Below, piece after piece: positions 1,503-59,325 of a DNA stretch of 64,000 bases (its first letter is position 1; each line of letters starts with the position of its first letter). The notes under the pieces are model-generated. The model was not told where the DNA came from, did not search any database, and was given only the letters and a program-made list of their open reading frames with translations. This stretch comes from Azolla caroliniana. Lineage: Eukaryota > Plantae > Polypodiophyta. The stretch is taken from assembly GCA_043228905.1 (NCBI GenBank), contig JBHGNT010000004.1, positions 8,618,001-8,682,000 on the forward strand, given 5' to 3'. A program made the position numbers and the translations under genes.

Positions 1503-3665
1503 CTATTGTTGTTGATGCTCCGTCTCCAGGTGCTTGTAGTCCCGATGTAGATGATCAAAATCATCGGTCTTCTGCTTTAGCCTTTGGTTGATCTGACGGT
1601 GCGCGCAGTCCTCCCGGTCCTTCTTTTGCCGGAGCTCTTCCTTCAGCCGCTCGATTTCCGTTTCCGCCATCCGCCGCAGCTTGTCTTTTTCCTGTTGCAC
1701 TTTCTCTTTTTCCTCCTTCAGCCGGTCATAAGCATGATGTCCTTTACGTAGGTTTTCCTCTGCACGGCGAAGGTTCTCAGCAGTCTTTCTTAATTCTTCT
1801 TCGGCCACCTTCTTCAAGTTGCGTTCGTGGCTCCGTAATGCTTCTTGTGCGGCAATCTCATCTTGTAATTTCGCAAGCTCTTGGGCTTGCGCCGCATGTT
1901 TCTCCGGGACAGTTTGTGTCTCCGGGGTCTTATTCTTCTGTACATCAACTGGAGTCACCAGTGCTTGGATCTGCGTTGCGGTTAAGGCCATTTTGGCCAT
2001 ATCTCCAGTGATCCGATCCAAGTCTTGGTCGAGGCACCGGATCCTTGACCGGGCCGTCTCCAGTTCATCGGTTATGACTAGCAACTGTTCCGTTTGCGCT
2101 CTTTCCTCCGCCTCTATGCATCCGACTACTCCGACAATTTGGTCTCCTATCCACCGGAGCCATTGGCTGCCGGTGCACTGTTGTTGCGCATGCACGGAGA
2201 GTTGGCTAATGGGTTCACTCGCCGGTGGCTGGTCCCACCGTTCTGCGTCAAGCTGCGCTTCTGGTTTTGCCAGCTGACCACTTTGCCGTTCCGGCTCTGA
2301 GTGTGTTTCGGCTAGTCGCCCCTTGTCTGCTTGTTCTTGGTCGGCTAGGGTGGTTGGCCTTTGTATCTCCGGCTCTTGGGTGACGGGGCTTGCCGGTGCT
2401 GCCTGTTGTGCCGGGACTTTTGTGATCGGTTCCATCCAAACCGGTTCCGGTGCCTCCCTTGGCGTGGGTTGCTTAGCGTGAGTTGTGGGCATTCCATCCT
2501 TCTGTGGGTCCAAACGCTTCTTGCCTGATTCAGCGGTGCTCTTCATCGGCCGCCGCTGGAGGTGCTCCGTGGGTTCTTCCTCCATTTCTTCCGCCTGAGT
2601 CCCGGCATTCATTCTTGCCGCCAGGGTGTCCGTTTCCTGTTGCACCGGTCGGTGGAGTGGGCTCTTCAAGGGCCGTGCCGGTGTCTCCTCACTTGCATCC
2701 ATCGGCCACTTCCGGCTGGCGCGCTCCTTCATCGCCTTCTCTGCTTCGGCAGTCTTCCCCTTAGTAGCCTTGGAGGCCAACAGTTGTTGCCATTTCGAAG
2801 CAGGTTTCGGGGTGCCGTTTGTTGCTCTTCCCCACTTCTTGGTTTGGACGGGCTCGACCGGTGGCGCCAACAAGGTGAGCCATTGTGTCACCGCATGCCA
2901 TATTTTCCGGCCTTCCTTGCCATCCTTTCCTCTTACTATATCAATGGCCGTACACAGCCCGTCGGCGATCAGCACCAACCAATCTACCTTGACCCCTTCG
3001 TACGTTGCGATAATCAAGCCCGCTCGGTTCTGAGGCATGACGGGGGGTCGAGGGTACACGTGGCCGAACTCGTGGAGCACACGGGCAATTTCACGGAATA
3101 ACATATCTTCGCCGCCCTGTGTCCTGTAGCCCTTGCTGGCTAGTGAGTACTCACCGAAATATTTGATGAGTTGCTCGGAGGTAGGATTGTCGATCGTGTA
3201 GATACCTCCCTCCGGAAGGCCTATTAATGCACGGATCGCTTCCTCCGTGATCACCTCTGTGTCGATTTCTTTTATAATCTTTTCGGCCTCCTTGTGTGGC
3301 GCCGCCTCCATGATCGTTAAGAAACCCTCCAGACCGTGTTGTCGTAACCATTTCTTGGCGGTTTCAGACAACGTTTGGCAGTCCATCTCTGCGTCGAGGT
3401 CGGAGAGCGTTGGCGAGGTTTGGTGGTGGGGAGAGTGTGAGAGAGAAAGTTCTAAGGGAGGGGGTTCTCTGTGTGCGAGCTCTCTACAATTGATCTTCGC
3501 GCGTCGCTCCGCGTCTGTTCTCCTTGGTTCGCGATAGGAGAAGGTCTCGATGCGTGGGGGTTTTTCTCTGTGCATCTTGACGCCTTTTTCGAGCCTCCGC
3601 ATGTGCAGGTCGTGTACTATAATAGCATTGTGTGCCATGTGGCGATGGTTTAATGTCCTATTCAT
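1503..3665 (-). CDS. Extra sense ORF downstream of integrase (720 aa): globular N-terminal region, P/Q/E-rich linker, long C-terminal coiled coil; function unknown
   Basis: Long open frame; the TAG at 1503-1505 is followed in frame by more coiled-coil sequence (MAELRQEVDRA...) up to the copia junction at 1395. Confidence 0.7.
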   Translation of the reverse strand: MNRTLNHRHMAHNAIIVHDLHMRRLEKGVKMHREKPPRIETFSYREPRRTDAERRAKINCRELAHREPPPLELSLSHSPHHQTSPTLSDLDAEMDCQTLSETAKKWLRQHGLEGFLTIMEAAPHKEAEKIIKEIDTEVITEEAIRALIGLPEGGIYTIDNPTSEQLIKYFGEYSLASKGYRTQGGEDMLFREIARVLHEFGHVYPRPPVMPQNRAGLIIATYEGVKVDWLVLIADGLCTAIDIVRGKDGKEGRKIWHAVTQWLTLLAPPVEPVQTKKWGRATNGTPKPASKWQQLLASKATKGKTAEAEKAMKERASRKWPMDASEETPARPLKSPLHRPVQQETDTLAARMNAGTQAEEMEEEPTEHLQRRPMKSTAESGKKRLDPQKDGMPTTHAKQPTPREAPEPVWMEPITKVPAQQAAPASPVTQEPEIQRPTTLADQEQADKGRLAETHSEPERQSGQLAKPEAQLDAERWDQPPASEPISQLSVHAQQQCTGSQWLRWIGDQIVGVVGCIEAEERAQTEQLLVITDELETARSRIRCLDQDLDRITGDMAKMALTATQIQALVTPVDVQKNKTPETQTVPEKHAAQAQELAKLQDEIAAQEALRSHERNLKKVAEEELRKTAENLRRAEENLRKGHHAYDRLKEEKEKVQQEKDKLRRMAETEIERLKEELRQKKDREDCAHRQINQRLKQKTDDFDHLHRDYKHLETEHQQQ

Positions 3666-3822
3666 AACTCCTCGTACCTTTTCGACATGCCTCTTTACTC
3701 CTCGTGTGCATGGCTGTTTCCACCACTCCTTTCCATGATTTATTTGATTTGCTCCTTTTTTTTATTTTTCATTTATTTATTTATTTATTTATTTTATTTA
3801 TTTTTTTAACTTACTTGTGTGG

Positions 3823-5142: not shown

Positions 5143-6801
5143 CTAGATACCGTCCGCACCTTTGTGGTATAGCGTGTCCTGTAATAAACAGAAGTGTCGG
5201 CTCTGTACAGCCAGGCGTTTTCTCTCGTCCCGGTTCATCTCCTCTGGAGGCAATCCGGTACTCAGAAACTGGTGCATATTAGTTAGCCACTTATCTTCTT
5301 GTGCCACCGTTTCATCTGTTGCTGTTTCCGTGGTGACTCGAAAAAACTCTGCATCCGGAAACTCGTCCGGTACTCCGTTACCTGTCTCCCCGGAATCTAA
5401 CCGGCTTAGATAATCTGCTACCGGATGTTGTATGCCGGGTCGGTGGAATATCTCGAATTCGAACTCTTGCAACAACAAAGTCCACCGGGCCAACTTACCG
5501 GTAAGTGACGCTTTGGATACTAGGTAGAGGAGCGCCGAATGATCTACATGGAAGGAGAACTTTCTTCCCAATAAATAATGCCTGAATTTTGTTACACTGT
5601 AGATCATTCCTAAAGCTTCCCATTCCATGGTAGAATAATTTCGTTCTGCTTGGGATAGCTTCCGGCTGGCATAGTACACTGGCCGATACCACCTTGGCTC
5701 GGTAAGCTGCATGAGCGCACTGCCGATTGCGATATCGGAAGCGTCCACGAACACATGAAACTCTTTACTCCAATCCGGAGGCTGCACTACCGGTGCTTGT
5801 GACAATAACAACTTTAGTGCCCGGTATGCCTTGTCTTCGATGTCGGTCCATTGGAACGGTGTTCGGTGTACTACCGCATGCAGAGGTGTAGCCAGGTCTG
5901 CCAAATATCGGAGCATACGGCTATTCCAGCGGATTTGTCCTAGGAAACGGCTCAATGTCTTTGCCGTTGCCGTTGCCGTTGCTTCCCGGATTGCTTTCAC
6001 TTTGTCTGGATCTACAGCAATGCCTTCCTTGCTCACTATATGCCCTAGTAACGTTCCGCTGGACCCTCCAAATACACACTTCGCCGGGTTTAGGCTTAGC
6101 CGGTACGCCCTACACTTCTCTAGACATAGTCTGAGATGCTGCAAATGATCTTCTTCTCTGCTATAGACGGCGAAGTCGTCAAGGAACACCTGCATAAAAG
6201 CCGGTATGTATTCGCCAAAGATCTCCATGATGATCCGTTGGAATGTTGCTGGTGCCGTTTTCAGCCCGAACATCATCACCACCGCAATAAACACTCCCCA
6301 TTTGGTGACGAAAGCCCTTTTCTCTTGATCCTCCGGTTGCATCCGGATCTGATTATACCCGTTGAATCCGTCTAAGAAACTGTAGACTTCATGGCCGGCG
6401 ACGGCATCCAACACTTCATCCGTAAACGGAAGTGGAAATGCATCCATTACCGTTGCCGCATTCAGCTTCCGGTAGTCGACACAAACTCTAATTTTTCTGT
6501 TCTTTTTCGGTACGACTACGATCGGGCTCAGCCATGTAGATTTCTTTACGGGACGGATGAAGCCGACCCTCAGTAGTTTGTCGATCTCCTCCTTGACTTT
6601 GGTGGCGTAGTTTGGGTTCATCCGGTACCGACGCTGTGCTACCGGCTTGGCATCTTTGCTCAGATGTATCTGGTGCTGACACAAGTGAGGATCCAAGCCT
6701 CTCATATCCTCGTACGACCAGGCAAAGACGTCGCGAAACTCGTTGAGTGTAATTATCGCTGTTTTGTTCTCTACATTCATTTCTTTGGCTGGTGCTGACA
6801 C
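5143..6801 (-). pseudogene. Gypsy reverse transcriptase and RNase H (552-aa open segment of a disrupted pol)
   Basis: SPIVVVPKK, RVCVDYRKLN, FLDGFNGYNQI, MFGLKTAPATFQR, VFLDDF, FVDASD, YYASRKLSQAERNY. Confidence 0.93.
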
Positions 6802-7183
6802 AACTGAGGATCCAGGCCTCTCATATCCTCGTACGACCAGGCAAAGACGTCACGAAACTCGTTGAGTGTAATTATCGTTGTTTTGTTCTCTACATTCATT
6901 TCTTTGGCGATGTGCACCGGTTTTGCCTCCTCCCGTTCCTAGATTTACCTCTTCTAATTGGGACGTTTCTACGCGCTGTGATACGGCCATTTCCCTTTCC
7001 AACGCCTCCTGGGCATGCCGTAACTCCCAGATTGCTTCTTTATCCGGTTCCGCTTCGGTTCCGTCCGGTTGCAGTAAGTAGGGTGATACCGCTTCCGCAA
7101 CGTCAATTTCAGATAGGGGTACAATCTTCGGGTTCTCCAGCAAGTACTGCTCTTCTTCTTCATCCGCTAATCCTTCCAGCATA

Positions 7184-27117: not shown

Positions 27118-28328
27118 CGGATGAAAATGAAGACATGGAGGAATCTAATTGATCATCGTAGCCGAAATCTCACTTCTTCTCTTCTTGGCACGTACCGGAG
27201 GACGTGCGGTTTGGTGGGGGTGGATGTCGTGAAGATTTTCGGCAATAGTGTGAAAATCCCATAAAACGTACAAAATCGAGTATGAATCATGTAATACAAT
27301 AATTGTGAAGATAACATTTTTAATATCTAAGTACAAAATGATGGAGGTTTCGAATGCACTTTATTACACGAGAAATGGACAACTAAATGTCAAGATATGA
27401 GGGTATAAAGTTTGTGAAAAGAAAAGAGAAAATTGTGAGATATCCCACATAGGCACGACAAATACGGCTCTCATCATATATAAGGTGGAGCAAAAGATAT
27501 TATCTTTGTGTCTATGTGTGGAGCATAGAGAGTTCAAGGTAGCTTGAACTTAGAGTGGAGGTGGCTAGCTACTCGAAAAGGGTTTTGGCCAACCAAAACC
27601 GGACCGGCGATGGAGACGGTGATCCGACGGCATCTGACCGCAATCCGGCGGCGGCATGCGGCACCGGTATCCGGCGTCAGCGTCGGTATCCGGCGGCGGC
27701 ATCCGGCGGCGGCACCGGTATACGGCGTCGGTATCCGGCGTCAGCGGCGGCATCCGGCGGTGGCACCGATATCCGGCGTCGGCATCCGGCGGCGGCACCG
27801 GTATCCGGCGACGGTATCCGGCGAACCGGCGACTAGATAAAATAAATATATAAAAATATATACATATACAAGGAGGGCAAGTATGGATTCGAACCTTGCA
27901 CCTCCAAGTTAGGAGTTAAATGGCTTACCATTAAGCCATAGTATTTAGTTGAAATTATATTTCTATCATTGTACTTTTACATGTAAATTCTCACTAAAAT
28001 GAGTGACATGGTTAGCATGCACCACATGTAATACTTAAGCGCCAAATGGCAAACATGCAATTTACGCATGTCTTGTACCCTCACATGCATCATATGCATG
28101 AGAGCATCTATAAAAGAGGGAAGGGGGAGGAGAAAAACATGGTTTTTTTTATGAAAATTAAGAAGAAGAAATTCGTTATCAAATCAATCGTGTAATCTCA
28201 TCTTCTCTCTTTCCCAATCTATCTTAAGTACTTTCTCGCCAAAGCTTGTATCGACTCTAAATCCTTCTGGTCCAGAACCCCGGCGGTTCCGCCTCACGAT
28301 CCGCGCGTAGTGACGGATCTTCACGACA
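27118..28328 (+). mobile_element. 3' end (INT tail, PPT, 1104-bp LTR 27225-28328) of the fungal-type gypsy family also found at 54042-59325
   Basis: Reverse complement of 54042-55184; the LTR has 12-bp terminal inverted repeats TGTCGTGAAGAT/ATCTTCACGACA. Confidence 0.9.
27871..27945 (-). promoter_or_regulatory. tRNA-derived Pol III type-2 promoter cassette inside the LTR
   Basis: A box TGGCTTAATGG (27938-27928), B box GGTTCGAATCC (27895-27885), 32-nt spacing, D-stem GCTT/AAGC, CTCCTAA anticodon-like loop, T5 at 27856-27852. Confidence 0.75.
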
Positions 28329-29735: not shown

Positions 29736-32700
29736 TGTTAAGAAATGGAATGGCAAGAGTGGTTGTAATGCAGCAGAAGGTGAGCGTATGTGTGTGTGTG
29801 TATAGTAGCAGAGCGAGAGAGAGAGAGCTCAAGGGAAAGAGATAGACAAAAGTATATATAATATTAACAAAACGAGATACATCCAACAGTGACTAAGTTA
29901 CAATGAGTTGGTTTATATATCAACTAAGCTAGGGCAAGTGCCCTTTCTACTATTTACAAAACTAGCCTAGAATGTCCATGAGCTAGTGTGAAACCTATCT
30001 ATGGGAAGTTGAGTTCAATTCTCAACACGCCCCTTCGAACACAACTTCCATCTATTCGGTTTGAAGTTCAGCGTACATATCTGCGTATGAATGCATATGT
30101 ATCAATGCGTACTCTGTGTACTCTGTGTACTCCCCCTCAAGCTTGGCAATGTGGACGACGTGAGACCAAGATCCGATGCAAATTGCCCGAGCATGTCGAT
30201 GCCTAAGGCCTTCGTAAAGATATCAACGACTTGTAGGTGCGTGCTGATGTGTTGGAGGTCAATTTCTATGGCCTGGACGCGCTCGCGGATGAAGTGGTAG
30301 TGCACTTCGATGTGTTTAGTCCGTGCGTGAAATACGGGGTTATGCGCAAGGTAGATGCTTCTCATGTTGTCGTAGTACAAGCATATTGGATCTTTGATGG
30401 GTACGCCCAGATCTTTTAGTATACGCTTAAGCCATACAACTTCGCATGCGGTGACTGCCACGCCCCTGTATTCGGCTTTAGTGCTCGATTGTGTGACTGT
30501 CGGTTGTTTCTTGCTGCTCCAGGAGATCGCTCTGCTGCGGAGGGAGAAGACGAATCCGGATGTGGATTGTCTATCCGCTTTGTATCATGCCCAGTCCGCG
30601 TCTGTGTACCCTTCAAGTCGAATGGTCGTATTCGACTTATACAGGATGTCGTGATCCATTGTCGTATTGACATACCGTAGTATCCTCTTAGCACAATCGA
30701 GATGAAGGTTACACGGATTCTACGTAAATTGGCTAAGTAGGCCAACCGAATAACTTAGATTGGGTCGCGTAATGGTGAGGTAGATAAAGCTACCGATTAG
30801 TTGGCGATACTGAGTCGGTTCAGTCTCGGTCATGCCAGAACTGGCATCAATCTTGATATTGTGATGAAGAGGGGTAGTCACAGGTTTGCACTTTGTCATT
30901 CCGAATTTGTACAATAGGTTGAGGACGTAGTGCCATTGTGAGATCATTAGCCCAACTGGTGTCCGAATTACTTCAATACCTAGGAAGTAATGAAGTTCGT
31001 GCAGGTCTTTCATTTTGAATCAGCCGGAAAGAAGTAATTTAACTTTGCTAATCTCGGTGAGATCCTTTCCTCCGATGAACAAATCATCCACGTAGAAGAT
31101 GATTATCGGGCTATCCGACTCGTTTCGAATGTACAGGGAAGTGTCGGATTTTCACATCTGAAATCCGACTTGATGAAGATACTGCGTGATCTTCGAATGC
31201 CAAGCACGCGGTGCTTGTTTGAGGCCTTAAAGTGGCCTCTTGAGTCGGCATATGGCATGTGGATGATTACACGATTCAAATCCGGGTGGTTGTGTCATAT
31301 ACACCTCTTCTTCTAGCTCTCCTTGGAGGAAAGTGTTTTTCACGTTCATCTGATGGAGGTGCCACCCTGTTGTTCCTCCTAGCGCGATTACGGTTCGTAT
31401 TGTCATCATCTTTGCCACCGGGGCAAACGTTTCTTCGTAGTCTATGTTGTGTGTCTATGAGTAGGCTTTTGCAACGAGCCATGCTTTGAAGCGATTTACG
31501 AAACCATCAACATTGTGCTTCACCTTGTAAATCCACCTTGGTTTCTTGTTCGGGGGGAGAGGAACGAGATCCCATGTCTCATTTTTGCATAACGCTTCCA
31601 TCTCCTCATTCATCGCGTTGACCCATCGCGGACCCTTTGCAGCTTCGGAAAGCGTTTCCGGTTCCCGTACTGACGCTACCTTCATCATGAATGCGTAATG
31701 ATACGCCATGTATTCATCGTAGCCGTAATGGTTTACGGGGTTCTTCTTGCGTGTGGATCGGCGTGGCTTGTCATTTGCGGGTTCTAGGGGTTTCTTCATG
31801 CCATTCGTGTGGAGGTCAAGGTCTTTGACCTCACTGTCGAGATCGAAATGATCTTCATACTCCTGTATTTTCGCCTTGCCTTTGTCTAGCAGTGGACTCG
31901 ACCAAGATGTGCTTTGATCACTTCGGGGCTCTTGTGGTCCGCTTAGCCATGTTGAGATTGGACTTTCTTCATGCATATGCGTGAGAAGATCTTCGACTTC
32001 TATTCTTATTTCGGTGTCATTCGCATCGAGTGAGGTTGGAGTCGAAGTATTTTCCGGTGCGTACCAAGATGCGTATTCATTGAAGACTACGTCTCGACTT
32101 GTTTGAACCTTACGGTTAGATGGGTTGTAGCCTTTGTACCCCTTCTGTTCGAGTGAGTATCCTACGAGGATACATTTCTCCAACTTTGGGTCAAGCTTTT
32201 TCCACGTATCATCGGGAATATGTACGTAGGCGATAGAGCCGAGAATGCGGACATGCAATAAGTCCGTCTTCTTTCCAAAGAACTGCTCATGAGGAGTTAT
32301 GTCGTGTACTCCTGAGGTCGTGCACCTATTCATGAGGTATACGGTCGTGTTCGCCGCTTCTGCCCAGTACGATTTCGGTAGTTTCTTCTCATTCATCATG
32401 GTTCGTGCGACTTCTACTATGTGGTGGTTTTTACTCTCAGCTACGCCATTTTGCTGAGGTGTATGTCGACACGAGAACTCTTGTCGGACTCCTTCCTTGT
32501 GGAGATACGACGAGAACTCATCCGAAAAATATTCTTTGCCTCCATCTGATCGAAGGCAGCGTACATGCTGGCCCGTGGCTTTTCCACTTCGGCTTTGAAC
32601 TTTTGGAAGTGGCCAAACACTTCACTCTTTTGCTTCATCGGATAAATCCAGGTATTTCTGGAGAAGTTGTCGATGAACGTGACATAGTAACGGCATCCGC

Positions 32701-34691
32701 CGAAAGTAGCTGTTTGGGCTGGTCCCCACATGTCTGAATGTATGACATCCAAGATCCCTTTGCTTACATTCCACTCTTTTGGGAATGGATGACGGCGTTG
32801 CTTTCCGAATTGGCATGCTTCGCACACGCCCGTGATCTCCTTTGCCGTAAAGTTCGGGAGTCTGATTACGACTCCTTTTGTCTGCATGTTCTGAAGCTTC
32901 TGGAGATTGGTGTGGCCGATTCTCTTGTGCCACAACTTTAAGTTGGTTTTGACTTTCTGGCCTTTTGCGTACATGGCCGACTTTACTTCGCTCGAATCGA
33001 GGATGAACATACGGCCTTCTCGTCTGCCGTGAGCTACGATTTGATCGCCTTTTTCAATGAAGCACCCATCGTTGCTACATTCCTTGTTCTACAATCTGCC
33101 TGATCGAGACCAGATTTTTTGTGATGGTGGGAACATGCAGTACGTTCTTGAGGTAGGTCTGTTCGCCATCATTTCCGAATGGGACACTCCCGATATGTTG
33201 TATTGGATGAGTCGTATCATCACCTATTTTGACATATCCAGGATGTTCGGGCTTCCGTAATTACCGAAACCAATCTTCATGGGAAGTCATGTGATTGGAA
33301 GCTCCCGAATCGACAAACCATACACTATTAGGAGTGGAGGCGGTGGTTGTCGCAAATGCAGATATCGAGTGTGCTTTCTGCTTCATTATGAACATTCCGC
33401 CACAATCGTCGTAGTTGGAGTTTGTCGCATAGTTCGTGAGTTGTCGGCTTGCCTCACGTTTCTTCTTTTGGCACTCTTCTTCGTAGTGGCCAGGTTTTCC
33501 GAAGTACTCGCACTCGACTGGGTTTCGGCGATTTCTTGGTCAGGAGTTATGACTGCCCCTTCCTCCAAGCTCTTTGGGCCCGTTCCTGTCCGCTTGCCAC
33601 TGGTGGGAGTTACGCCCTTGATTCCGCCGATCATTATGGCCTTGTCCGAAATGACCTTAGTTTCCACGGCCGAAATCTCTTCTACTATCCGACTCGGAGT
33701 AGAGCAAATGACCATCTGATGTGTTGTTCCTCTGTCGGGCGTGATTCTCTTCGACCAACAATATCGATTGAAGGTCGAAGAAGGAGGGAGGGTTCTCCCT
33801 TGTGAGAATAGCCAATCTAATTGCGCCGAAACGCGGTGCTAAGCCTCCGAGGCATATCTACACCAGTTCGTCATCGTCAATGACGACGTTGATCAATCCA
33901 AGGGTGTCATATAGCTCCTTGATCTTCAAGGTATAGTTGTTGATTGACATGTCCCTTTGTTGAAGATTTTTTAGCTCCTGTCGAAGTTGGAGCTTTTGTG
34001 CGGCCGTATTGGCTGTGAAGATCTTCTTGAGGTTTTCCCACACCTGCTTCGGCGTTTTAGCCTCTCGAATGTAGCCAAGCATATGATCATGAACACATGA
34101 TGCAAGGTAATACAACACACGGCTTGCGGCCTGCTCCCAAGCGGGATAGTCAGCGTGTGTTGGGTTGGGGTGTGATTCGTGAGCTCCTTCGATGTAGCTC
34201 TAGTAGCCTTGTCCAACAAGATATTGATGCATCTTGTATTCCCAAGATGCAAAGTTTGTTTTGTCGAGCTTCTCGATAGGAAGAGCGCTTCCCATTTGAA
34301 TATTCATGGTGATTTCTTCTCGGTCGATGGGTCGGTTCTATTGATCGTAGGCGTGCAGTACAACACAGTCGAAAAATGCTTGATCAAGCAACCACACGCT
34401 CTGATACCATGTTAAGAAATGGAATGGCAAGAGTGGTTGTAATGCAGCGGAAGGTGAGCGTATGTGTGTGTTTGTATAGCAGCACAAAGAGAGAGAGAGA
34501 GAGAGATAGACAAAAGTATATATAATATTAACAAAACGAGATACATCCAACAGTGACTAAGTTACAATGAGTTGGTTTATATATCAACTAAGCTAGGGCA
34601 AACGCCCTTTCTACTCTTTACAAAACTAGCGTAGAATGTCCATGAGCTAGTGTGAAACCTATCTATGGGAAGTTGAGTTCGATTCTCAACA
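29736..34691 (-). mobile_element. Full-length but degenerate Ty1/copia element (4956 bp), TSD ATTAT
   Basis: LTRs 29736-30027 and 34410-34691; TSD at 29731-29735 and 34692-34696; iMet PBS 34398-34409; gag, GAG-pre-integrase, INT, RT, RH fragments broken by frameshifts. Confidence 0.93.
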
Positions 34692-34919: not shown

Positions 34920-35834
34920 CTACTGGAGGATGTGCGGGTTCGGAGGGGGCGAGTGTCCTAGTGTAGTTCGCAGACTATGAGAAATTTGCAGTTTTGGTCC
35001 CTTCGGATGGGACATGGAGACTCGACAATAACCTGATGAAGAGTACCCGGTGAGAACCGGACGAAGCAGACTGGCAAGAGCCGGATGAAGAAGGCTAGTG
35101 AGAGTCAGTGAGAAACGGACAAAGAGGACCCGGTAAGAACCGGATAAAGAAGACCCAGTGAGAACCGGATGAAGCAGACCTGGCCAAAGCCGGATGAAGA
35201 AGGCCAGTGAGAGTCTCTCACCGGATGAAGAGACAAATTTGTAAATAGAAGAAAAGATATTACATGCATAGGGAAGGATTCAAACCCTGTACCTCTACAT
35301 AGACAAACCCCAACCTTACCATTACACTAACATATCATTAGTGTTAAAAAAAGTAAATGTTCCACATAGAAAGGTAAGTCCACACTAGGAGAAACTTTAG
35401 TTAGAAGAAAAGGCATGATAAAAGAAAAAGCTACACATGCACATCTACCGTGCATGAACACTATAGTCGATAGAAAAAACGCATGACTTTAGAAAAAGCA
35501 TGTTAGGTAAAGCATATAGTCTATAGCTAGAGAAAAAGCATGGATTGTGAAGACTCTCTCATCACTATATAAGGATGGGAGCAGTATGTAATAGGGTGTG
35601 AAATATTTGGAAATTGGATATATTTCTTAAAACACCAATTAATAAAATATAATCGTGGGATTCACGAAATTCATATTCTTATATATATATATTGATTAAT
35701 AAAATTAATTATCCTTGTGGGATTCACAAGTTTTCTATATCTCTTTCTTATAATCTATTTATATTCTTATTAGCCTTAAAAGTCTCCTCTTGCTAGTCCA
35801 AAACCTCAGCGGTTCCCACCCAACTACACAACGA
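34920..35834 (+). mobile_element. PPT region and LTR (~34954-35834) of a family related to the 27225-28328 LTR
   Basis: Upstream ctactggaggatgtgcgggttcggaggggg resembles gtaccggaggacgtgcggtttggtggggg; 3' end tagtccaaaacctcagcggttcc resembles tggtccagaaccccggcggttcc; CCGG repeats at 35040-35230; right boundary approximate. Confidence 0.7.
35265..35336 (-). promoter_or_regulatory. Second tRNA-derived Pol III cassette, antisense within the LTR
   Basis: A box TAGTGTAATGG (35329-35319), B box GGTTTGAATCC (35286-35276), 32-nt spacing, T4 at 35255-35252. Confidence 0.65.
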
Positions 35835-37498
35835 TCCGGCGACGAAAGGCACGACAGCGCGAGTAGTTGTCGATGAAGGTTACGAAGTATCGGCATCTGT
35901 CGATCGTCGGCGTTTGAGCCGGGCCCCATACATCCGAGTGTATGACGTCGAGGAGGCCTTTGCTTGCGAAGCTCTCCTTCGGGAATGGGAGTCGATGTTG
36001 TTTGCCGAGTTGACACGCTTTGTATACTCGGTCGACTCATTTCGACTCGAATGTCGGAAGTCCGATGATGACTCCCTTGGTTTGCATCGTTCGAAGCCGT
36101 TGGAGGTTTATGTGGTCGATTCTCTTGTGCCACAACTCGATGCTTGTCTCGGTTTTGAGAACTTTGGCGTGCATTGCCGATTTCACCTCATTCGAATCGA
36201 GGATGAACATTCGACCATGTCTCCACCCCTTCACTATGAGTCGGCCATCTTTATCGATGAAACAACCTTCATTGTTGAAGCGGACTTGCATGCCTTGCTC
36301 CACGATTTGGCCAACTAAGACCAAATTCTTCATTATTGTGGGCATGTGCAAGACATTCTTGATGCAAGTTTTATCGTCTTCTCTCGATGTGCCGAATGTG
36401 GTGTGTGGTGTCGTCTCCCATCTCTATGAAGCCGGGTCGATCCGACGTTTGTGAATCACGAAACCACTCTTCGTGAGATGTCATGTGAGCTAAGGCCATC
36501 GAGGAACCTTCGAAGTGGAAGCTCCCCCTTCTTCCGAAGGTTCCCTTCGTGTGATGGGTCGAATTGACCTCTTCTACCGCCGTGACCTCCTCCTCGGCCA
36601 CCGACCAAATTCGAGAAGAACATTTCTCATTCCGACATCTTGCTTTTGGTTCGGACATGGTTCTCTTCGACCAATAGCATTGATTGGAGGTCGAAGAATG
36701 AAGGAGGGTTTTTTCTCGCCAAGATTGTTGTGCGTAATGGATCAAATCGTTGTGCGAGGTCGCCCAAACATACTTGAACCATCTCTTCTTCGTCGACGTT
36801 TATTTTGATGGAGACAAGCGAGTCACAAATGCTCTTGATCTTGGCGGTGTAGTCAGACACGGACATGTCTTTTTGTCGAATGTTATTCAACTCTTGTCGA
36901 AGTTGAAGGTTTCGTGCGGTTGTGTTGGCGGCGAACATTTTCTTTAATTTCGCCCACGCTTCTTTAGGCATCTTGGTGTCTCCAATATGGCTAAGCATGT
37001 GGTCATGGACACATGTTGCCAAGCAATACATGACTCGACTAGCCGCTTGCTCCCATGTTGCGTAGTCGGCGTTCTTTGAGTCGGGTCGATTTTCTTGAGC
37101 GCCGTTGATGTAGCTCCAATACCCTTGGCCGACAAGGTATTAGGTCATCTTGTACTCCCAAGATGAATAACTAGTCCGGTCTATCTTTTTGCTAGGGAGC
37201 GAGATACCCATTTGTGTGTTCGTGTTGATTGTAGTGTCTTCTCTCTTTTGCTTTTCTTCCTTCGATCATGTACACGTGCTATGTAGCGGCACTACGGTAG
37301 CCGATAGCCAGATTTTGTCGTTGGCGTCTCGAACACACAATCATGGAGTCGGGTGGGCTTAGTGGATTTTCTAAACCACACGCTCTGATACCATGTTAAG
37401 AATTAGGTAAGTAATTAAGCAGGGATTAATTAGTACCTAATTATGTGATTAGTTGATAAGCGGAAGATTAAGTGATATGTGTGTGTATGTGTGTGAGA

Positions 37499-54041: not shown

Positions 54042-54435
54042 TGTCGTGAAGATCTGTCACTACGCACGGATTGTGAGGCGAAACCGTCTGGGTTCTGGAC
54101 CAGAAGGATTTAGAGTCGATACAAGCTTTGGCGAGAAAGTACTTAAGATAGATTGGGAAAGAGAGAAGTTGAGATTACACGATCAATTTGATAACGAATT
54201 TCTTCCTCTTAATTTTCATAAAAAAAACCGTGTTTTTTCTCCTCCCCCTTCCCTCTTTAATAGATGCTCTCATGCATATGATGCATGTGAGGGTACAAGA
54301 CATGCATAAATTGCATGTTTTCCATTTGGCGCTTAAGTATTACATGTGGTGCATGCTAACCATGTCACTCATTTTAGCTCTCATGTATGAGAATTTACAT
54401 GTAAAAGTACAATGATAGAAATATAATTTCAACTA

Positions 54436-54510
54436 AATAGCATGGCTTAATGGTAAGCCAATTGACTCCTAACTTGGAGGTGCAAGGTTTGAATCCATAC
54501 TTGCCCTCCT
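54436..54510 (+). promoter_or_regulatory. tRNA-derived Pol III cassette in the second copy of the LTR (antisense to the element)
   Basis: A box TGGCTTAATGG 54443-54453, B box GGTTTGAATCC 54486-54496, 32-nt spacing. Confidence 0.7.
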
Positions 54511-55149
54511 TGTATATGTAAATATGTATATATATTTATATATTTATTTATCTAGTCGCCGGATGCCGTCGGTCGCCGGATACCGGTGCTGCCGCCGGAT
54601 GCCGTTGGTTACCGGTGCCGGATGCCGGATGCCGTCGGTTACTGGTGCCTCACCGGATACCGGTGCCGGATGCCGTCGGATCACCGTCTCCATCGCCGGT
54701 CTGGTTTTGGTTGGCCAAAACCCTTTACGAGTAGCTAGCCACCTCCACTCTTAGTTCAAGTTACCTTGACTCTCTATGCTCCACACATAGACACAAAGAT
54801 AATATCTTTTGCTCCACCTTATATATGATGAGAGCCGTATTTGTCGTGCCTATGTGGGATATCTCACAATTTTCTCTTTTCTTTTCACAAACTTTATACC
54901 CTCATATCTTGACATTTAGTTGTCCATTTCTCGTGTAATAAAGTGCATTCGAAATCTCCATCATTTTGTACTTAGATATTAAAAATGTTATCTTCACAAT
55001 TATTGTATTACGTGATTCATACTCGATTTCGTACGTTTTATGGGATTTTCACACTATTGCCGAAAATCTTCACGACATCCACCCCCACCAAACCGCACGT
55101 CCTCCGGTACGTGCCAAGAAGAGAAGAAGTGAGATTTCGGCTACGATGA

Positions 55150-58100
55150 TCAATTAGATTCCTCCATCTCTTCATTTTCATCCGGCCTATTATGTTCATC
55201 GTCGAGGTAATCGAGGTCAGGATCCTTGTCTTGTCTTTTCTTGAAAAGCTTTACTCTTTTTCCCGCAATGGGTATGGCCAACCTTGATCCGTCTAGTTCT
55301 GCAAGGTGGTATGTGGCATTATCGTTGGCACTTGTCACCACATACGGCCCGAACCATCTTCTTGCGAACTTCCTTGTTGTACTATGTTGATTGTCAAGGG
55401 TGCTGTCGTAAACCAAAACCCAATCCCCTTCTTCAATCTTCTTGGGACGAAGTCGATGCGTGTTGTCGAACCGAACTTTGTTCTTTACTCGGGCTGCCTT
55501 CATCATCTTTCGCGCTTTTTCTAAATCTTCAGGTCTTCTTTCAAGTTGCCTTATCCGCGCCGCTAATAACTCTTCTTGGCTCATCTCGTTCTCCCACGGT
55601 ATCGCTACCCATGAGGCGATCGTCCTTTCGATGGGCATAATCGGCTTTTGTCCATACATAAGCTCCGTCGGCATATACCCTGTCACCGAGCTATGTGTCG
55701 TTCTATCGGCCCACAAGGCATAGGGTAATAGTCGTGGCCAATTCACGACTCGACTGTTGCATGCCCGTATGATGGCTTTAACGATAGGTCCATGCCCTCG
55801 CTCGATCTTCCCATTTCTTCCGGATTGTAGGCAGTCGTGAGGGAGAGCTTCACGCCTAGTCTTTCGAAGAGCTCCGTCGCTTCATGCGCGTCCAACTCCC
55901 CTCGGTCGGCCACTATCTTCCCTACACATCCATATCGGCAAACAACATCTTCAAGTAAAAATTTACAAACGGCTGAAGTCGTCTTATTTGTCAAGGCTCG
56001 TCCTTCCACTTGATTTGTCAAGTCTTCCCTTGCGAGCGCTAAGTACTTCATTTGTCCCACTCCCATTGGCATTGAGACCAGATCCACCATCCATTTGAAG
56101 TGAATGGTGAGTGGGTATGTCGGCTTTAACTCATCACGATGACGTATATTTGAATATATTTGGCAAGTTTCACATGTGGACACGAAATGAATATATTTGG
56201 CAACATCTTCAAGTAAAAATTTACAAACGGCTGAAGTCGTCTTATTTGTCAAGGCTCGTCCTTCCACTTGATTTGTCAAGTCTTCCCTTGCGAGCGCTAA
56301 GTACTTCATTTGTCCCACTCCCATTGGCATTGAGACCAGATCCACCATCCATTTGAAGTGAATGGTGAGTGGGTATGTCGGCTTTAACTCATCACGATGA
56401 CGTATATTTGAATATATTTGGCAAGTTTCACATGTGGACACGAAATGGAGTACATCTTTGTACATGCTTGGCCACCAATACTTCTCCTTCAATTTTTCGA
56501 ACGTCGCCCATGTTCCTCTATGACCTGCCCAAGCACTCTCGTGGAATTCGGTCATCAGCGTCTCTTGCTCTTCTTTCTTTACCACCACTCGACGTGGTAT
56601 TCCTGTCCTTCTTTTTGGGTGTCGCCAAAGGAATCCTCCCTTCAAGAAGTATCGATAAGCTTTCTTTCGGATTCGTAGGGCCTCCTCCTTTGTCAACGAA
56701 GCATCTGTCGTCAATGTTCTTAGGAATCTACCGATGAGTAACCATTCTCCTTCGTACTCGTTCTCGTTGAAGGCGTGGAGGGTTTGCGTGTCCTGGTCTT
56801 CCGCTGACAATTGAGCCATCTTGAAGAAGTTGAGGGCGACATCTTCATCTTCCGAAACTATGTTACTTCCATTTGAAAATCTTGCCCTCGACAGCATGTC
56901 AGCCATGGCGTTCTTCTTCCCTGCGATGTGACGGATCTCTGGGTTTAAAGACTTGATGTAGGCGATCCACCTTAGCATAGCAAGATCTGGGGTCGCACAT
57001 CCCGAGACCATTCCGAGAATTGGGAGACAATCTGTCTCTATTATCACTTATGACCCGATCAGGTAATCTTTGTCCGTCTTCACTGCCGACACAATACCCC
57101 AAAGTTCCCGCTTGACTTGGGCATACCTTTGTTGCCGTTCGCTGAGAACCTTTGCTCCGAACCGGACGGCATATCGCGCATTATCTTCACCTTCTTGATT
57201 GATGACCCACCCGATTCCGGTTGGGCTCGTATCTACGGTCACGTAAATTGGTTTCCCTTTGGCATAGTCGGCCTTCCTTAGTGCCGGAGCTTCAAGAAGC
57301 AGTTTCTTTAATCTTCGCATCGCCTCTGTGTGCTCATCTCGCCATTCGAACTTTATTCTTTTCTTTAGTAGTCCATATAACGGTTCGGCGACATGAGCGT
57401 AGTGAGGAATCCATATATGATAAAATGCGCACGCTCCAAGGAACCTTCGAACCTCCGTTTGGTTTTCGCATTCTTCTTTCATGTCTTGGATTGCGTTCAC
57501 TTTGGATGGCGAGGGCTTCTGGCCGTATGCTCCACACAAGTGACCTACCACCAAGATCTCCGGTTGCCCGAATGCGGATTTTTCTCCCGAAAATGTCAAA
57601 TTCGCATCTTCGAGCCTTTGAAGCACCTTCTCGCAATCTTTCATATGATCCGCAACGAACTTTCTACAACCTTCCTTATCTTTCAATTCATCTTTCTCCT
57701 CATCCGAACATCCTTTTATCGGAATATCATCCAAGAATGGCATCGTGATGTCCGGAATGCAATCCTTCAAGACTTTATTCATGGCATTCACCATATGAGC
57801 CACCGAGTTCGTTGCGCCTTGGGGTAAGGTACACATCCGCACAAGCCCGATCGGAGTCCTCATGGTTGTAATGTCCCGACTGTCGATCGCCAATTGGAAT
57901 TGGTCATATCCGGAGTAGAGATCGCCAATGGAGTAGATGGACCGGCCCGCAAACGCTTCGGCAAATTCGTCCACGCTCGGACCGATTCCGGCATTTCGAA
58001 TTGTCACCTTGTTGACGGGTTGAAGATCTTGGATGAATCGCAATGATCCATTCTTCTTCGGCACCGTGAACCACCTATTGGAATAAGGAGCATTCGACGG

Positions 58101-58817
58101 TTCTAGAATTCCCATACTCACCTTCTCCTTTAAGAGCTCGATCAGCTTCGGAAGGTGTGCTCTCGGAACCGGTATCGGTTTCAAATTCCAAGGCACATGA
58201 GGCACCGTGAAGATCACCATTGGCTCTATAACCTTTGGGTCGGCGCATCCGATTTCTCGTGGGAAGAATGCGAAAGCCTTCCCATGTCTCTCAAGCATAT
58301 CGCGAAACATTCGCTCCTCTTCAGGGAGAAGGAAATCCTCCTTTCCAACTCGTAGCTTCCCCTTCGTCTCTTTGGTGAAGTCATGACCTATCTTCTTCGG
58401 ATCTCTTAAGCTTGGATCGTTAGCGACTTCCTTCATCTTTTGCCAGCTATCTTCCGGTAGCGGAACCGCAACTGGCTTGATCTTCTTATCCACCGTTTTA
58501 TATTTCGTGTTGATGTCAGCTTCCTTCATCGAGATGCCACGACGGTATTCATCGATGATAGCGTACATGTTGACTGAGTTAACCGAAATCACGCATTGGT
58601 TGTGAAGATAGCTCAAGTCCACGACGTCCTCGATTTCGCCGATGGTGTCGTTAAATGAGGCTTCTTCCATAATATGAGTCACGAACTCCCCTTCTTCTAT
58701 TATGTTCTCTTCTTTCAGCATCTTCTCGAATTCTTGTATCCGGTGCTTGTGCTTCTTGTCGGGTAGTACTAGTTTACATGCGCCACTAGGTGTGACACAT
58801 GTTGCTTCTCCTTGCAA
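55150..58817 (-). pseudogene. Gypsy pol (RT, RH, INT) with one stop, one frameshift and an in-frame 258-bp duplication
   Basis: ORFs of 589, 434 and 198 aa are collinear; HFVSTCETCQ...KFLLEDV occurs twice. Confidence 0.9.
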
Positions 58818-58891
58818 TCCACGCGCTCTTCTTTCTTGTGGGGTCTTGTGATTGCTCTGACTATTTGTGCCCCATGCTTCAATAGTCCGCT

Positions 58892-59325
58892 CTAAAAATC
58901 CGAGGATTCGCCTCCGAGACTATCTCGATTCCTTTCCTGATTGGCTCGCACTGTTAGGAATTGGACCGATCTTTGGTTGTCAAGACTCTTTATTCGTGCG
59001 AAGGCTGCTCCATTATCGAACACTTTGGTCTCCATCCGAGATGATGTGATATAAGGTTGCCCTAGGATGACAGGATGCGACGCCGATTCTTGTACGAAGA
59101 AGTGTTGATCCATCTCCACATCCCCGATCGTGACTTTGACATTGGGACAAGCTCCGTACAAGTCCTCCGTAGACTTTGTTGCCGCGTGAATCTTCCATCC
59201 GTGGTTTGTATTGATTGGCCATCTTCCCTTTTTGTAGAAGTCGGCTGACATGAGGTTGATCTCCGAGCCGTGGCCGATCAAGGCTACGACGGTCTCTTTC
59301 TTCTCCCCGATCTTCACCGGCGTCT
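58892..59325 (-). pseudogene. Aspartic protease region ending the upstream ORF at GGATTTTTAG
   Basis: VALIGHGSEINLM (catalytic D apparently replaced by G) and VILGQPY. Confidence 0.7.

Follow-up and report, generated by a model that had tools for sequence, protein, structure and literature searches.

Kojima (2024, PMC10886601) argues that LTR retrotransposons, where they are autonomous, have to rely on Pol II promoters, and notes, without analysing them, tRNA-like pieces in "not a few" LTRs of Repbase. In Helenus/TRIMp3, tRNA-derived LTR sequence is conserved around boxes A and B, and it makes neither a working tRNA nor a complement to the primer-binding site (PBS); in the Cassandra and Ajax TRIMs a Pol III internal promoter is conserved within the LTR (Kojima, 2024, PMC10886601). 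Foamy-virus LTRs carry Pol III miRNA units, composed of A/B boxes and a terminator, in the U3 of an autonomous, otherwise Pol II-driven retroelement (PMC3993851). On the host side, yeast tRNA genes block the spread of silent chromatin, and both the A and the B box are required (PMC7990762). How LTR elements landing in silent, repeat-rich chromatin remain transcribable is an open question; the moss chromovirus RLG1 sits in heterochromatic islands and is still transcribed (PMC7466625).

Here, we analyzed a 64,000-nt stretch of the Azolla caroliniana genome (the window) in which LTRs of Ty3/gypsy elements contain a tRNA-like unit formed by an A box, a spacer and a B box (the cassette), and followed this unit through the genome.

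An antisense A/B-box cassette in the LTRs of the window

The LTR under study closes a family-2 element at its 3′ end; a copia insertion (~29736-34691) interrupts the internal part of that element. Its features are as follows:

34942..34953, plus strand: polypurine tract (PPT), which marks the 3′ LTR of the family-2 element; the same tract stands before the 3′ LTRs of relatives
34954..35856, plus strand: family-2 LTR, TG...CA, 903 nt, then GCGC (NCGN-type target site)
35040..35230, plus strand: CCGG-rich repeats, optional in family 2 and common to a copia LTR of the window
35252..35255, minus strand: first T4 (predicted Pol III terminator), ~20 nt past the B box
35276..35286, minus strand: B box GGTTTGAATCC, with a C-to-T change at its CpG and likely inactive in this copy
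35287..35318, minus strand: 32-nt spacer, of which the middle 16 nt drift and the first 5 and last 11 nt are conserved
35319..35329, minus strand: A box TAGTGTAATGG
35566..35573, plus strand: TATA-like box of a predicted Pol II promoter, separated from the A box by ~240 nt

Two LTRs of a second family, family 1, are also present in the window:

27225..28328, plus strand: family-1 LTR
27885..27938, minus strand: its cassette, with A and B boxes intact
54042..55077, minus strand: second family-1 LTR; an RT-RNaseH-integrase region (55150-58919, minus strand) lies upstream of it
54443..54496, plus strand: cassette of this second LTR, to which it is antisense; the B-box CpG has decayed

An earlier note on this DNA had ended the family-2 LTR at position 35834. 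We place the end at 35856, because 28 of 30 close relatives stop at the homologous CACGACA. The antisense A/B-box cassette with a 32-nt gap and a downstream T4, which the same note had reported, was recovered in the window LTR and in both family-1 LTR copies. The boxes match the A- and B-box consensus of type 2 Pol III promoters at a tRNA-like spacing. The cassette pattern matched three times in the window, when compared to 0.01 matches expected from 100 shuffles. A search of the window with ARAGORN returned no tRNAs, the cloverleaf of a tRNA gene not being found, and an Rfam search of the window revealed no RNA family at the cassette.

The family-1 LTR has two TATA-like sites (window positions 27468-27485 and 28109), which flank the CCGG repeats and the cassette, and the 5′ site (~27468-27485) is identical to the family-2 TATA context at 18 of 19 positions. 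Since a second TATA-like site is located 5′ of the cassette, the position of the family-1 promoter is uncertain; this LTR may be composite.

A conserved order of CCGG repeats, antisense cassette and TATA had been proposed for the two families. The place of the cassette 5′ of the last TATA holds, but the CCGG repeats are missing from 36 of 52 family-2 LTRs, and a sense-oriented family (see below) shows that orientation is not fixed. Since both repeats and orientation vary, that order is not the conserved unit. Between the CCGG repeats of families 1 and 2 no alignment longer than 14 nt was found. The sequence between the boxes, which had been said to differ between the families, does so in its middle 16 nt (42% identical), but the last 11 nt are 78% identical.

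A copia LTR of the window (1393-621, minus strand), accompanied by a Met-type primer site and a copia-like gag start, has CCGG-rich U3 repeats that are 71% like those of family 2 over 149 nt. The similarity reaches the presumptive start of the cassette, and the copia LTR itself carries no cassette. Because these repeats are common to copia and family 2, U3 pieces may move between lineages or superfamilies here. Elsewhere in the window (1503-3761, minus strand), a 752-codon open frame with no Pfam match lies downstream of a gypsy RT region (5143-6849) and in the same orientation.

Families 1 and 2 are Phygy-like gypsy elements

Behind the 5′ LTR of both families lies the primer site TGGTGAACCCGACGTGA, which complements the 3′ end of the tRNA-Trp(CCA) genes found in this genome. 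Shared RT ancestry of the two LTR families had been set beforehand as a test, and it was borne out: the RTs are 82% identical and form one clade (support 100/100) in a midpoint-rooted tree of 21 rows, all from this genome, that carries a long-branch warning. Family-1 solo LTRs have NCGN flanks in 12 of 12 cases and an exact 4-bp duplication in 11 of 12. An internal region of ~5.7-5.8 kb, filled by a polyprotein (gag-RT-RH-INT, no Chromo match), fits the short non-chromovirus Phygy layout. Neumann (2019, PMC6317226) describes Phygy elements as short and non-chromovirus, and names the NCGN insertion preference as peculiar to them. By these features families 1 and 2 are Phygy-like gypsy elements.

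Insertions of families 1 and 2 occur nearly all at CG dinucleotides (NCGN, 4-bp duplication), and many are nested in other retrotransposons. Full gag-pol members of family 2 are represented by L149 and L347. Shorter family-2 elements (~3-4 kb; L061, L062, L063, L348 and L349) have paired LTRs and one long ORF, with no RT, and they are likely a non-autonomous derivative; a Pfam search of the long ORF of L348 and L349 gave no match.

Retention and conservation of the cassette in family 2

Family-2 LTRs were located by means of a 15-nt pattern from their 3′ end, which ignores the boxes (3342 matches), and 70 of the first 100 listed were examined. The antisense cassette was present in 52 of the 53 LTRs with both ends among these 70, the exception being a 72-nt remnant, and in 4 of the 17 LTRs devoid of the 5′ end. 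By copy count, the expectation that most relatives carry the cassette was thus confirmed. The distance between the boxes was 32 nt in 53 copies and 33 nt in the other 3. When the exact pattern was searched across the 523-Mb genome, 3173 matches were obtained at 32 nt, 100 at 33-38 nt and 51 at 26-31 nt, whereas the reversed pattern at the 32-nt gap gave 0 matches. As a control, LTR ends preceding a Met-type PBS (7 families, last 600 nt scanned) contained the cassette in 0 of 14 cases; a nested family-2 LTR gave one match.

Conservation was measured between 21 family-2 subfamily clusters, whose distances have a median of 0.28 and a maximum of 0.40. Transversion divergence between these clusters was low in the A box (0.014), the 5 nt that follow it (0.015), the last 11 nt of the spacer (0.019) and the B box (0.043), and high in the central 16 nt of the spacer (0.203) and in the upstream flank (0.232). 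A single indel event fell in the 54-nt cassette, when compared to 11-35 in eight other 54-nt intervals and 3 in the terminal interval. By net divergence, the A box ranked only at the 30th percentile. A-box position 3 deviates in one autonomous family-2 subfamily, and it does so in one chromovirus subfamily too. When contigs of four small runs of uncertain type were aligned to the family-1 LTR, three covered the cassette with related copies; the changes among the rows listed fall in the spacer and at the R position of the A box. As contigs carry no strand, start or level, these data were left out of the assessment.

The conserved block of family 2 reaches 11 nt before and ~14 nt after the B box, and the conservation includes CATG/ACGT palindromes. 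This extension would suit Pol II transcription-factor sites whose conserved words resemble A and B boxes by chance. We consider such sites an improbable explanation, because two boxes occur at tRNA spacing (the gap of the host tRNA-Trp is 32 nt) in unrelated lineages, and because variation among 16 representative copies falls mostly at the degenerate box positions.

At the B-box CpG, 56 family-2 copies have CG (29), TG (14), CA (10), TA (2) or GG (1). CpG decay leaves such a spread, and the window copy, which has TG, is probably dead; most genomic copies of the cassette, the window copy included, are predicted to be inactive. Among the clustered family-2 copies, the B-box CpG had decayed in 10 of 27 (37%), compared with 17% and 33% at other CpGs of the LTR. 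No protection of the B-box CpG relative to those other CpGs was seen in these copies, and thus there is no sign of methylation protection.

The decay of the B-box CpG at the pace of other sites would be expected of an inert relic, left by old tRNA or SINE insertions and riding on successful LTR families. The absence of the cassette from about six sister families, the weak box signal of the main chromovirus group (both below) and the frequency of tRNA-like pieces in Repbase LTRs (Kojima, 2024, PMC10886601) point the same way. Against a relic stand the box-specific and, but for the one event, indel-free conservation across subfamilies that are up to 40% diverged, the recurrence of the cassette at the same place in U3, in either orientation and in two lineages that are not related, and the lack of a free SINE among 90 pattern matches. 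We regard the relic as a distinctly unlikely account.

Selection on a Pol III promoter had been preferred in the earlier note to a chance SINE insertion. Retention in complete family-2 LTRs, together with conservation of boxes and spacing, supports selection on an A/B-box element, but capture and selection are not alternatives. The cassette sequence is of tRNA-like origin, and selection appears to maintain it.

Distribution among families with a Trp-type primer site

When loci were anchored on the primer site, 20 of 30 had an antisense cassette, 399-550 nt from that site. The remaining 10 comprised four loci cut by insertions, three with deletions through the cassette, two lacking it (L107 and L120), and L122, where a sense cassette lies within a neighbouring inverted LTR and was left out of the between-family figures. 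In a census of 70 primer sites the carriers were family 1 and its relatives, family 2, and the L134, L105 and L341-type families; a degenerate cassette was read by eye in L176. About six Trp-primer families have no cassette (L107/L120, L138, L141/L278, L197, L303/L347b and L291, 1-2 copies each), although the RT of the L107/L120 family is 88% identical to that of family 1. The absence from these sister families shows that the cassette is dispensable. The idea that the module tracks the clade therefore stands in part: carriers are spread across related families, but the six Trp-primer families lack the cassette and an unrelated chromovirus lineage carries it.

Among the antisense Phygy-like families (49 pairs of real copies), pairwise identity was 0.74 in the A box, 0.74 in the B box, 0.35 in the mid-spacer and 0.32-0.36 in the flanks, the box identities being partly circular because the segments were anchored on the boxes. 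The L341 LTR has a second A/B-like match, in sense and with 3 mismatches, downstream of TATA and ~375 nt before the primer site. In L108, L117, L118 and L124, breakpoints of deletions or insertions fall within the cassette or on its border.

Among the 25 best copies of one Phygy-like family, 24 have the cassette in sense, with a gap of 33 nt in 23 of them. A T4 is present at +23/24 in 22 of 24 copies, and it precedes the TATA, which in most copies is found ~100 nt beyond the B box. The existence of this family excludes a general antisense role.

A Tcn1-like chromovirus lineage carries the cassette

Four of the first 30 pattern matches were in a different LTR, which followed a chromodomain. LTRs of this lineage were anchored on their PPT (159 matches, 50 examined). 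An antisense cassette scored (at most 4 mismatches) in 45 of the 50, and 39 were clean (gap 31-33 nt, at most 2 A-box mismatches); the controls gave 0 on the other strand and 4 of 500 shuffles. In most cases, 10-31 nt separate the end of the B box from the start of the LTR. The boxes are perfect in each LTR of three young elements, which have 5-bp duplications and LTRs that are 99.6-100% identical.

A Chromo domain (PF00385, E 1.9e-14 to 2.8e-11) was detected at the end of the polyprotein in 3 of 3 chromovirus pol ORFs tested, and the RT is ~22% identical to the Phygy type. These elements have no tRNA primer site; in each of the 4 analysed, a self-priming complement (11/13) lies ~210 nt inside the LTR, and since it is located just after TATA the chromovirus cassette lies in U3. 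Tcn1 is described as a chromovirus lineage that is mostly without a tRNA PBS and self-priming (Neumann, 2019, PMC6317226). By chromodomain and self-priming our lineage is Tcn1-like.

Genome-wide, a pattern of PPT plus B box gave 1158 matches when compared to 0 in the control. The same pattern, which does not ask for an A box, retrieved 17 contigs from metagenomes, and in 14 of them an A box was present 31-33 nt away; these contigs are 73-99% like the families of this genome and do not represent separate taxa. For the main chromovirus group, 35 of 47 copies could be aligned, and the conservation of the boxes does not clearly exceed that of their flanks.

At the LTR 5′ end of L337 (571-658) and L342, the chromovirus cassette folds into a hairpin that is long and almost perfect (z -4 to -6) and adjoins the purine tract. 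Spacer and B box pair with each other in this hairpin, and by eye the subfamilies appear to differ by compensating changes. In a divergent chromovirus family (L169, L409 and L416), 11-16 nt lie between the LTR start and the B box, and only a weak A-box-like word occurs, 39 nt off; this is possibly a B-box-only site.

The cassette could also act as part of the genomic RNA while this is packaged or reverse-transcribed, either through a fold close to the PPT or through base pairing with the primer tRNA. The HIV-1 U3 has a tRNA-like motif that is comparable. With its start 10-31 nt away from the PPT and its long hairpin, the chromovirus cassette would be in line with such a role, and so would a 7-nt anticodon-arm stretch common to family 1 and the host tRNA-Trp. 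The chromovirus elements, however, lack a tRNA primer site and bear the self-priming signature, cassettes match tRNA-Trp at only ~33/54 positions with a generic B box, and the sense family is unable to pair with the tRNA. We judge a genomic-RNA role highly improbable, and as a general function it is largely excluded.

Origin of the cassette

The cassette layout is in tRNA register, and its gap equals that of the host tRNA-Trp (32 nt). No specific donor tRNA could be retained: in an incomplete panel of 40 tRNA cores the best scores were 29.5-37.5 of ~54, with family 1 nearest to Arg(TCT). Phygy and chromovirus cassettes compared with each other had a mean score of 29.2, and cassettes compared with tRNAs one of 28.4, so that a single old capture and independent captures are both compatible with the data. 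The 90 exact-pattern loci comprised 87 in these LTRs, 1 truncated LTR and 2 seemingly decayed tRNA genes, and none was a free-standing SINE. Capture would have taken place from a tRNA gene or a tRNA-derived SINE at least twice, or once with subsequent transfer by U3 swapping.

A self-encoded primer was considered and rejected: by eye, the 3′ ends of the cassettes show no complement to the Trp PBS, which matches the host tRNA-Trp(CCA). The tRNA-Trp 3′-end pattern itself is clustered at C8:17.80-17.82 Mb, C16:4.99-5.11 Mb and C5:10.105-10.112 Mb, with spacings of ~0.9-1.2 kb between many of the matches, which hints at tRNA-Trp genes in tandem arrays; ARAGORN confirmed a single site, on C5.

Candidate roles of the cassette

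Common to all carriers are the boxes, their spacing and a position 5′ of the last TATA (roughly 100-270 nt). Orientation, RNA body, fold and the presence of a terminator inside the LTR are not. The median z of the cassette fold was -0.4 in family 2, -3.6 in family 1 and -3.1 in the chromovirus, with similar values on both strands. A single conserved hairpin was discarded, as family 2 does not fold and the folds differ between families.

A Pol III gene whose selected product is a short RNA of ~70-110 nt, e.g., a hairpin small-RNA precursor or a silencing decoy, would account for the T4 present within 20-37 nt after the B box in 55 of 56 family-2 copies and at +23/24 in the sense family, and for the scarcity of T4 within the cassette (2/56 and 0/39). 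The strong hairpins of the family-1 and chromovirus cassettes would fit as well, and the foamy-virus LTR miRNAs provide a precedent (PMC3993851). We nevertheless hold a short RNA product to be unlikely: the family-2 cassette is unfolded, folds differ by family and are nearly equal on the opposite strand, a T4 inside the LTR is missing from 32 of 45 chromovirus cassettes, and the RNA body is saturated between families.

Orientation independence and the lack of a common fold fit an element that works at the DNA level. Given the variable orientation, fold and body, the tDNA barriers of yeast (PMC7990762) and the transcription of RLG1 (PMC7466625), we rank a barrier or promoter-opening site first. 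We tentatively propose, with confidence that stops a little short of even, that the tRNA-like A/B-box unit in the gypsy U3 is selectively kept as a putative TFIIIC/TFIIIB cis barrier site. The role is drawn by analogy with yeast rather than from plants. By that analogy, (i) TFIIIC/TFIIIB would bind the cassette, as suggested by the tDNA barriers; (ii) the bound factors would act in cis on LTR chromatin as a barrier against silencing; and (iii) the barrier would allow the Pol II promoter of the element itself to be used even within silent chromatin.

A bolder version, in which a tRNA-gene promoter was domesticated separately in each of two unrelated Ty3/gypsy lineages to serve as a portable anti-silencing barrier, appears doubtful to us. 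If it were true, every new insertion would bring a TFIIIC/TFIIIB boundary, and thousands of Pol III factor sites would be scattered genome-wide. The sites at hand, at least 3324 with the exact pattern plus the chromovirus variants that escape it (1158 matches to PPT plus B box, in part overlapping), could compete for TFIIIC or seed boundaries. The cassette is present or absent in close sisters, and it is found in both orientations and in two lineages, which makes the cis-barrier idea testable.

Comparison with known systems

Cassettes in LTRs of autonomous plant gypsy elements were not found described in the openly available literature, to which our search was largely confined. The Phygy and Tcn1 descriptions given by Neumann (2019, PMC6317226) do not mention Pol III boxes in the LTR. 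The supplement of Kojima (2024, PMC10886601), in its entries for LTRs with tRNA parts, has none for Physcomitrium or another moss, and a Selaginella LTR there has its tRNA part in sense.

Barriers at yeast tDNAs and TFIIIC sites resemble the proposed role, in that A/B-box DNA would act on adjacent chromatin; they belong to the host and are not inside an LTR, and the barrier activity of the cassette is inferred (PMC7990762). The boundaries formed by mouse B2 SINEs offer another host-side comparison, and there they are attributed to CTCF (PMC8136502). The foamy-virus units share with the cassette their place in the U3 of an autonomous element and their A/B boxes and terminator, but they yield defined hairpin miRNAs, as established by experiment, whereas the units described here are predicted, lie in plant Ty3/gypsy elements and have no common fold (PMC3993851). 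The Cassandra and Ajax TRIMs likewise conserve a Pol III promoter within the LTR; unlike the cassette it is 5S-derived, the elements are non-autonomous, and in Cassandra the promoter transcribes the element (Kojima, 2024, PMC10886601).

Helenus/TRIMp3 is similar in its conservation around the two boxes, and in having neither a working tRNA nor PBS complementarity. Helenus elements, as characterized in the text of Kojima (2024, PMC10886601), are non-coding TRIMs of 311-1263 bp, whereas the cassette elements are protein-coding, 6-8 kb long and keep a TATA. Taking all cassette elements with paired LTRs, the span is ~3-8 kb and many encode gag-pol, which places them outside TRIMs by size and coding content. 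In two LTRs of the same supplement the Helenus tRNA part is in sense, and it is thought to make the genomic RNA (Kojima, 2024, PMC10886601). The cassettes described here are mostly antisense, and the sense one is closed by a T4 before the TATA, unlike a promoter of genomic RNA of the Helenus type. New in this work is thus a real and probably selected cassette in the LTRs of protein-coding gypsy elements, in an unrelated chromovirus lineage and in a sense-oriented Phygy-like family. It extends the TRIMp3 idea from non-coding mini-elements to protein-coding ones, an extension not expected in the defining paper, to judge by its treatment of autonomous elements (Kojima, 2024, PMC10886601).
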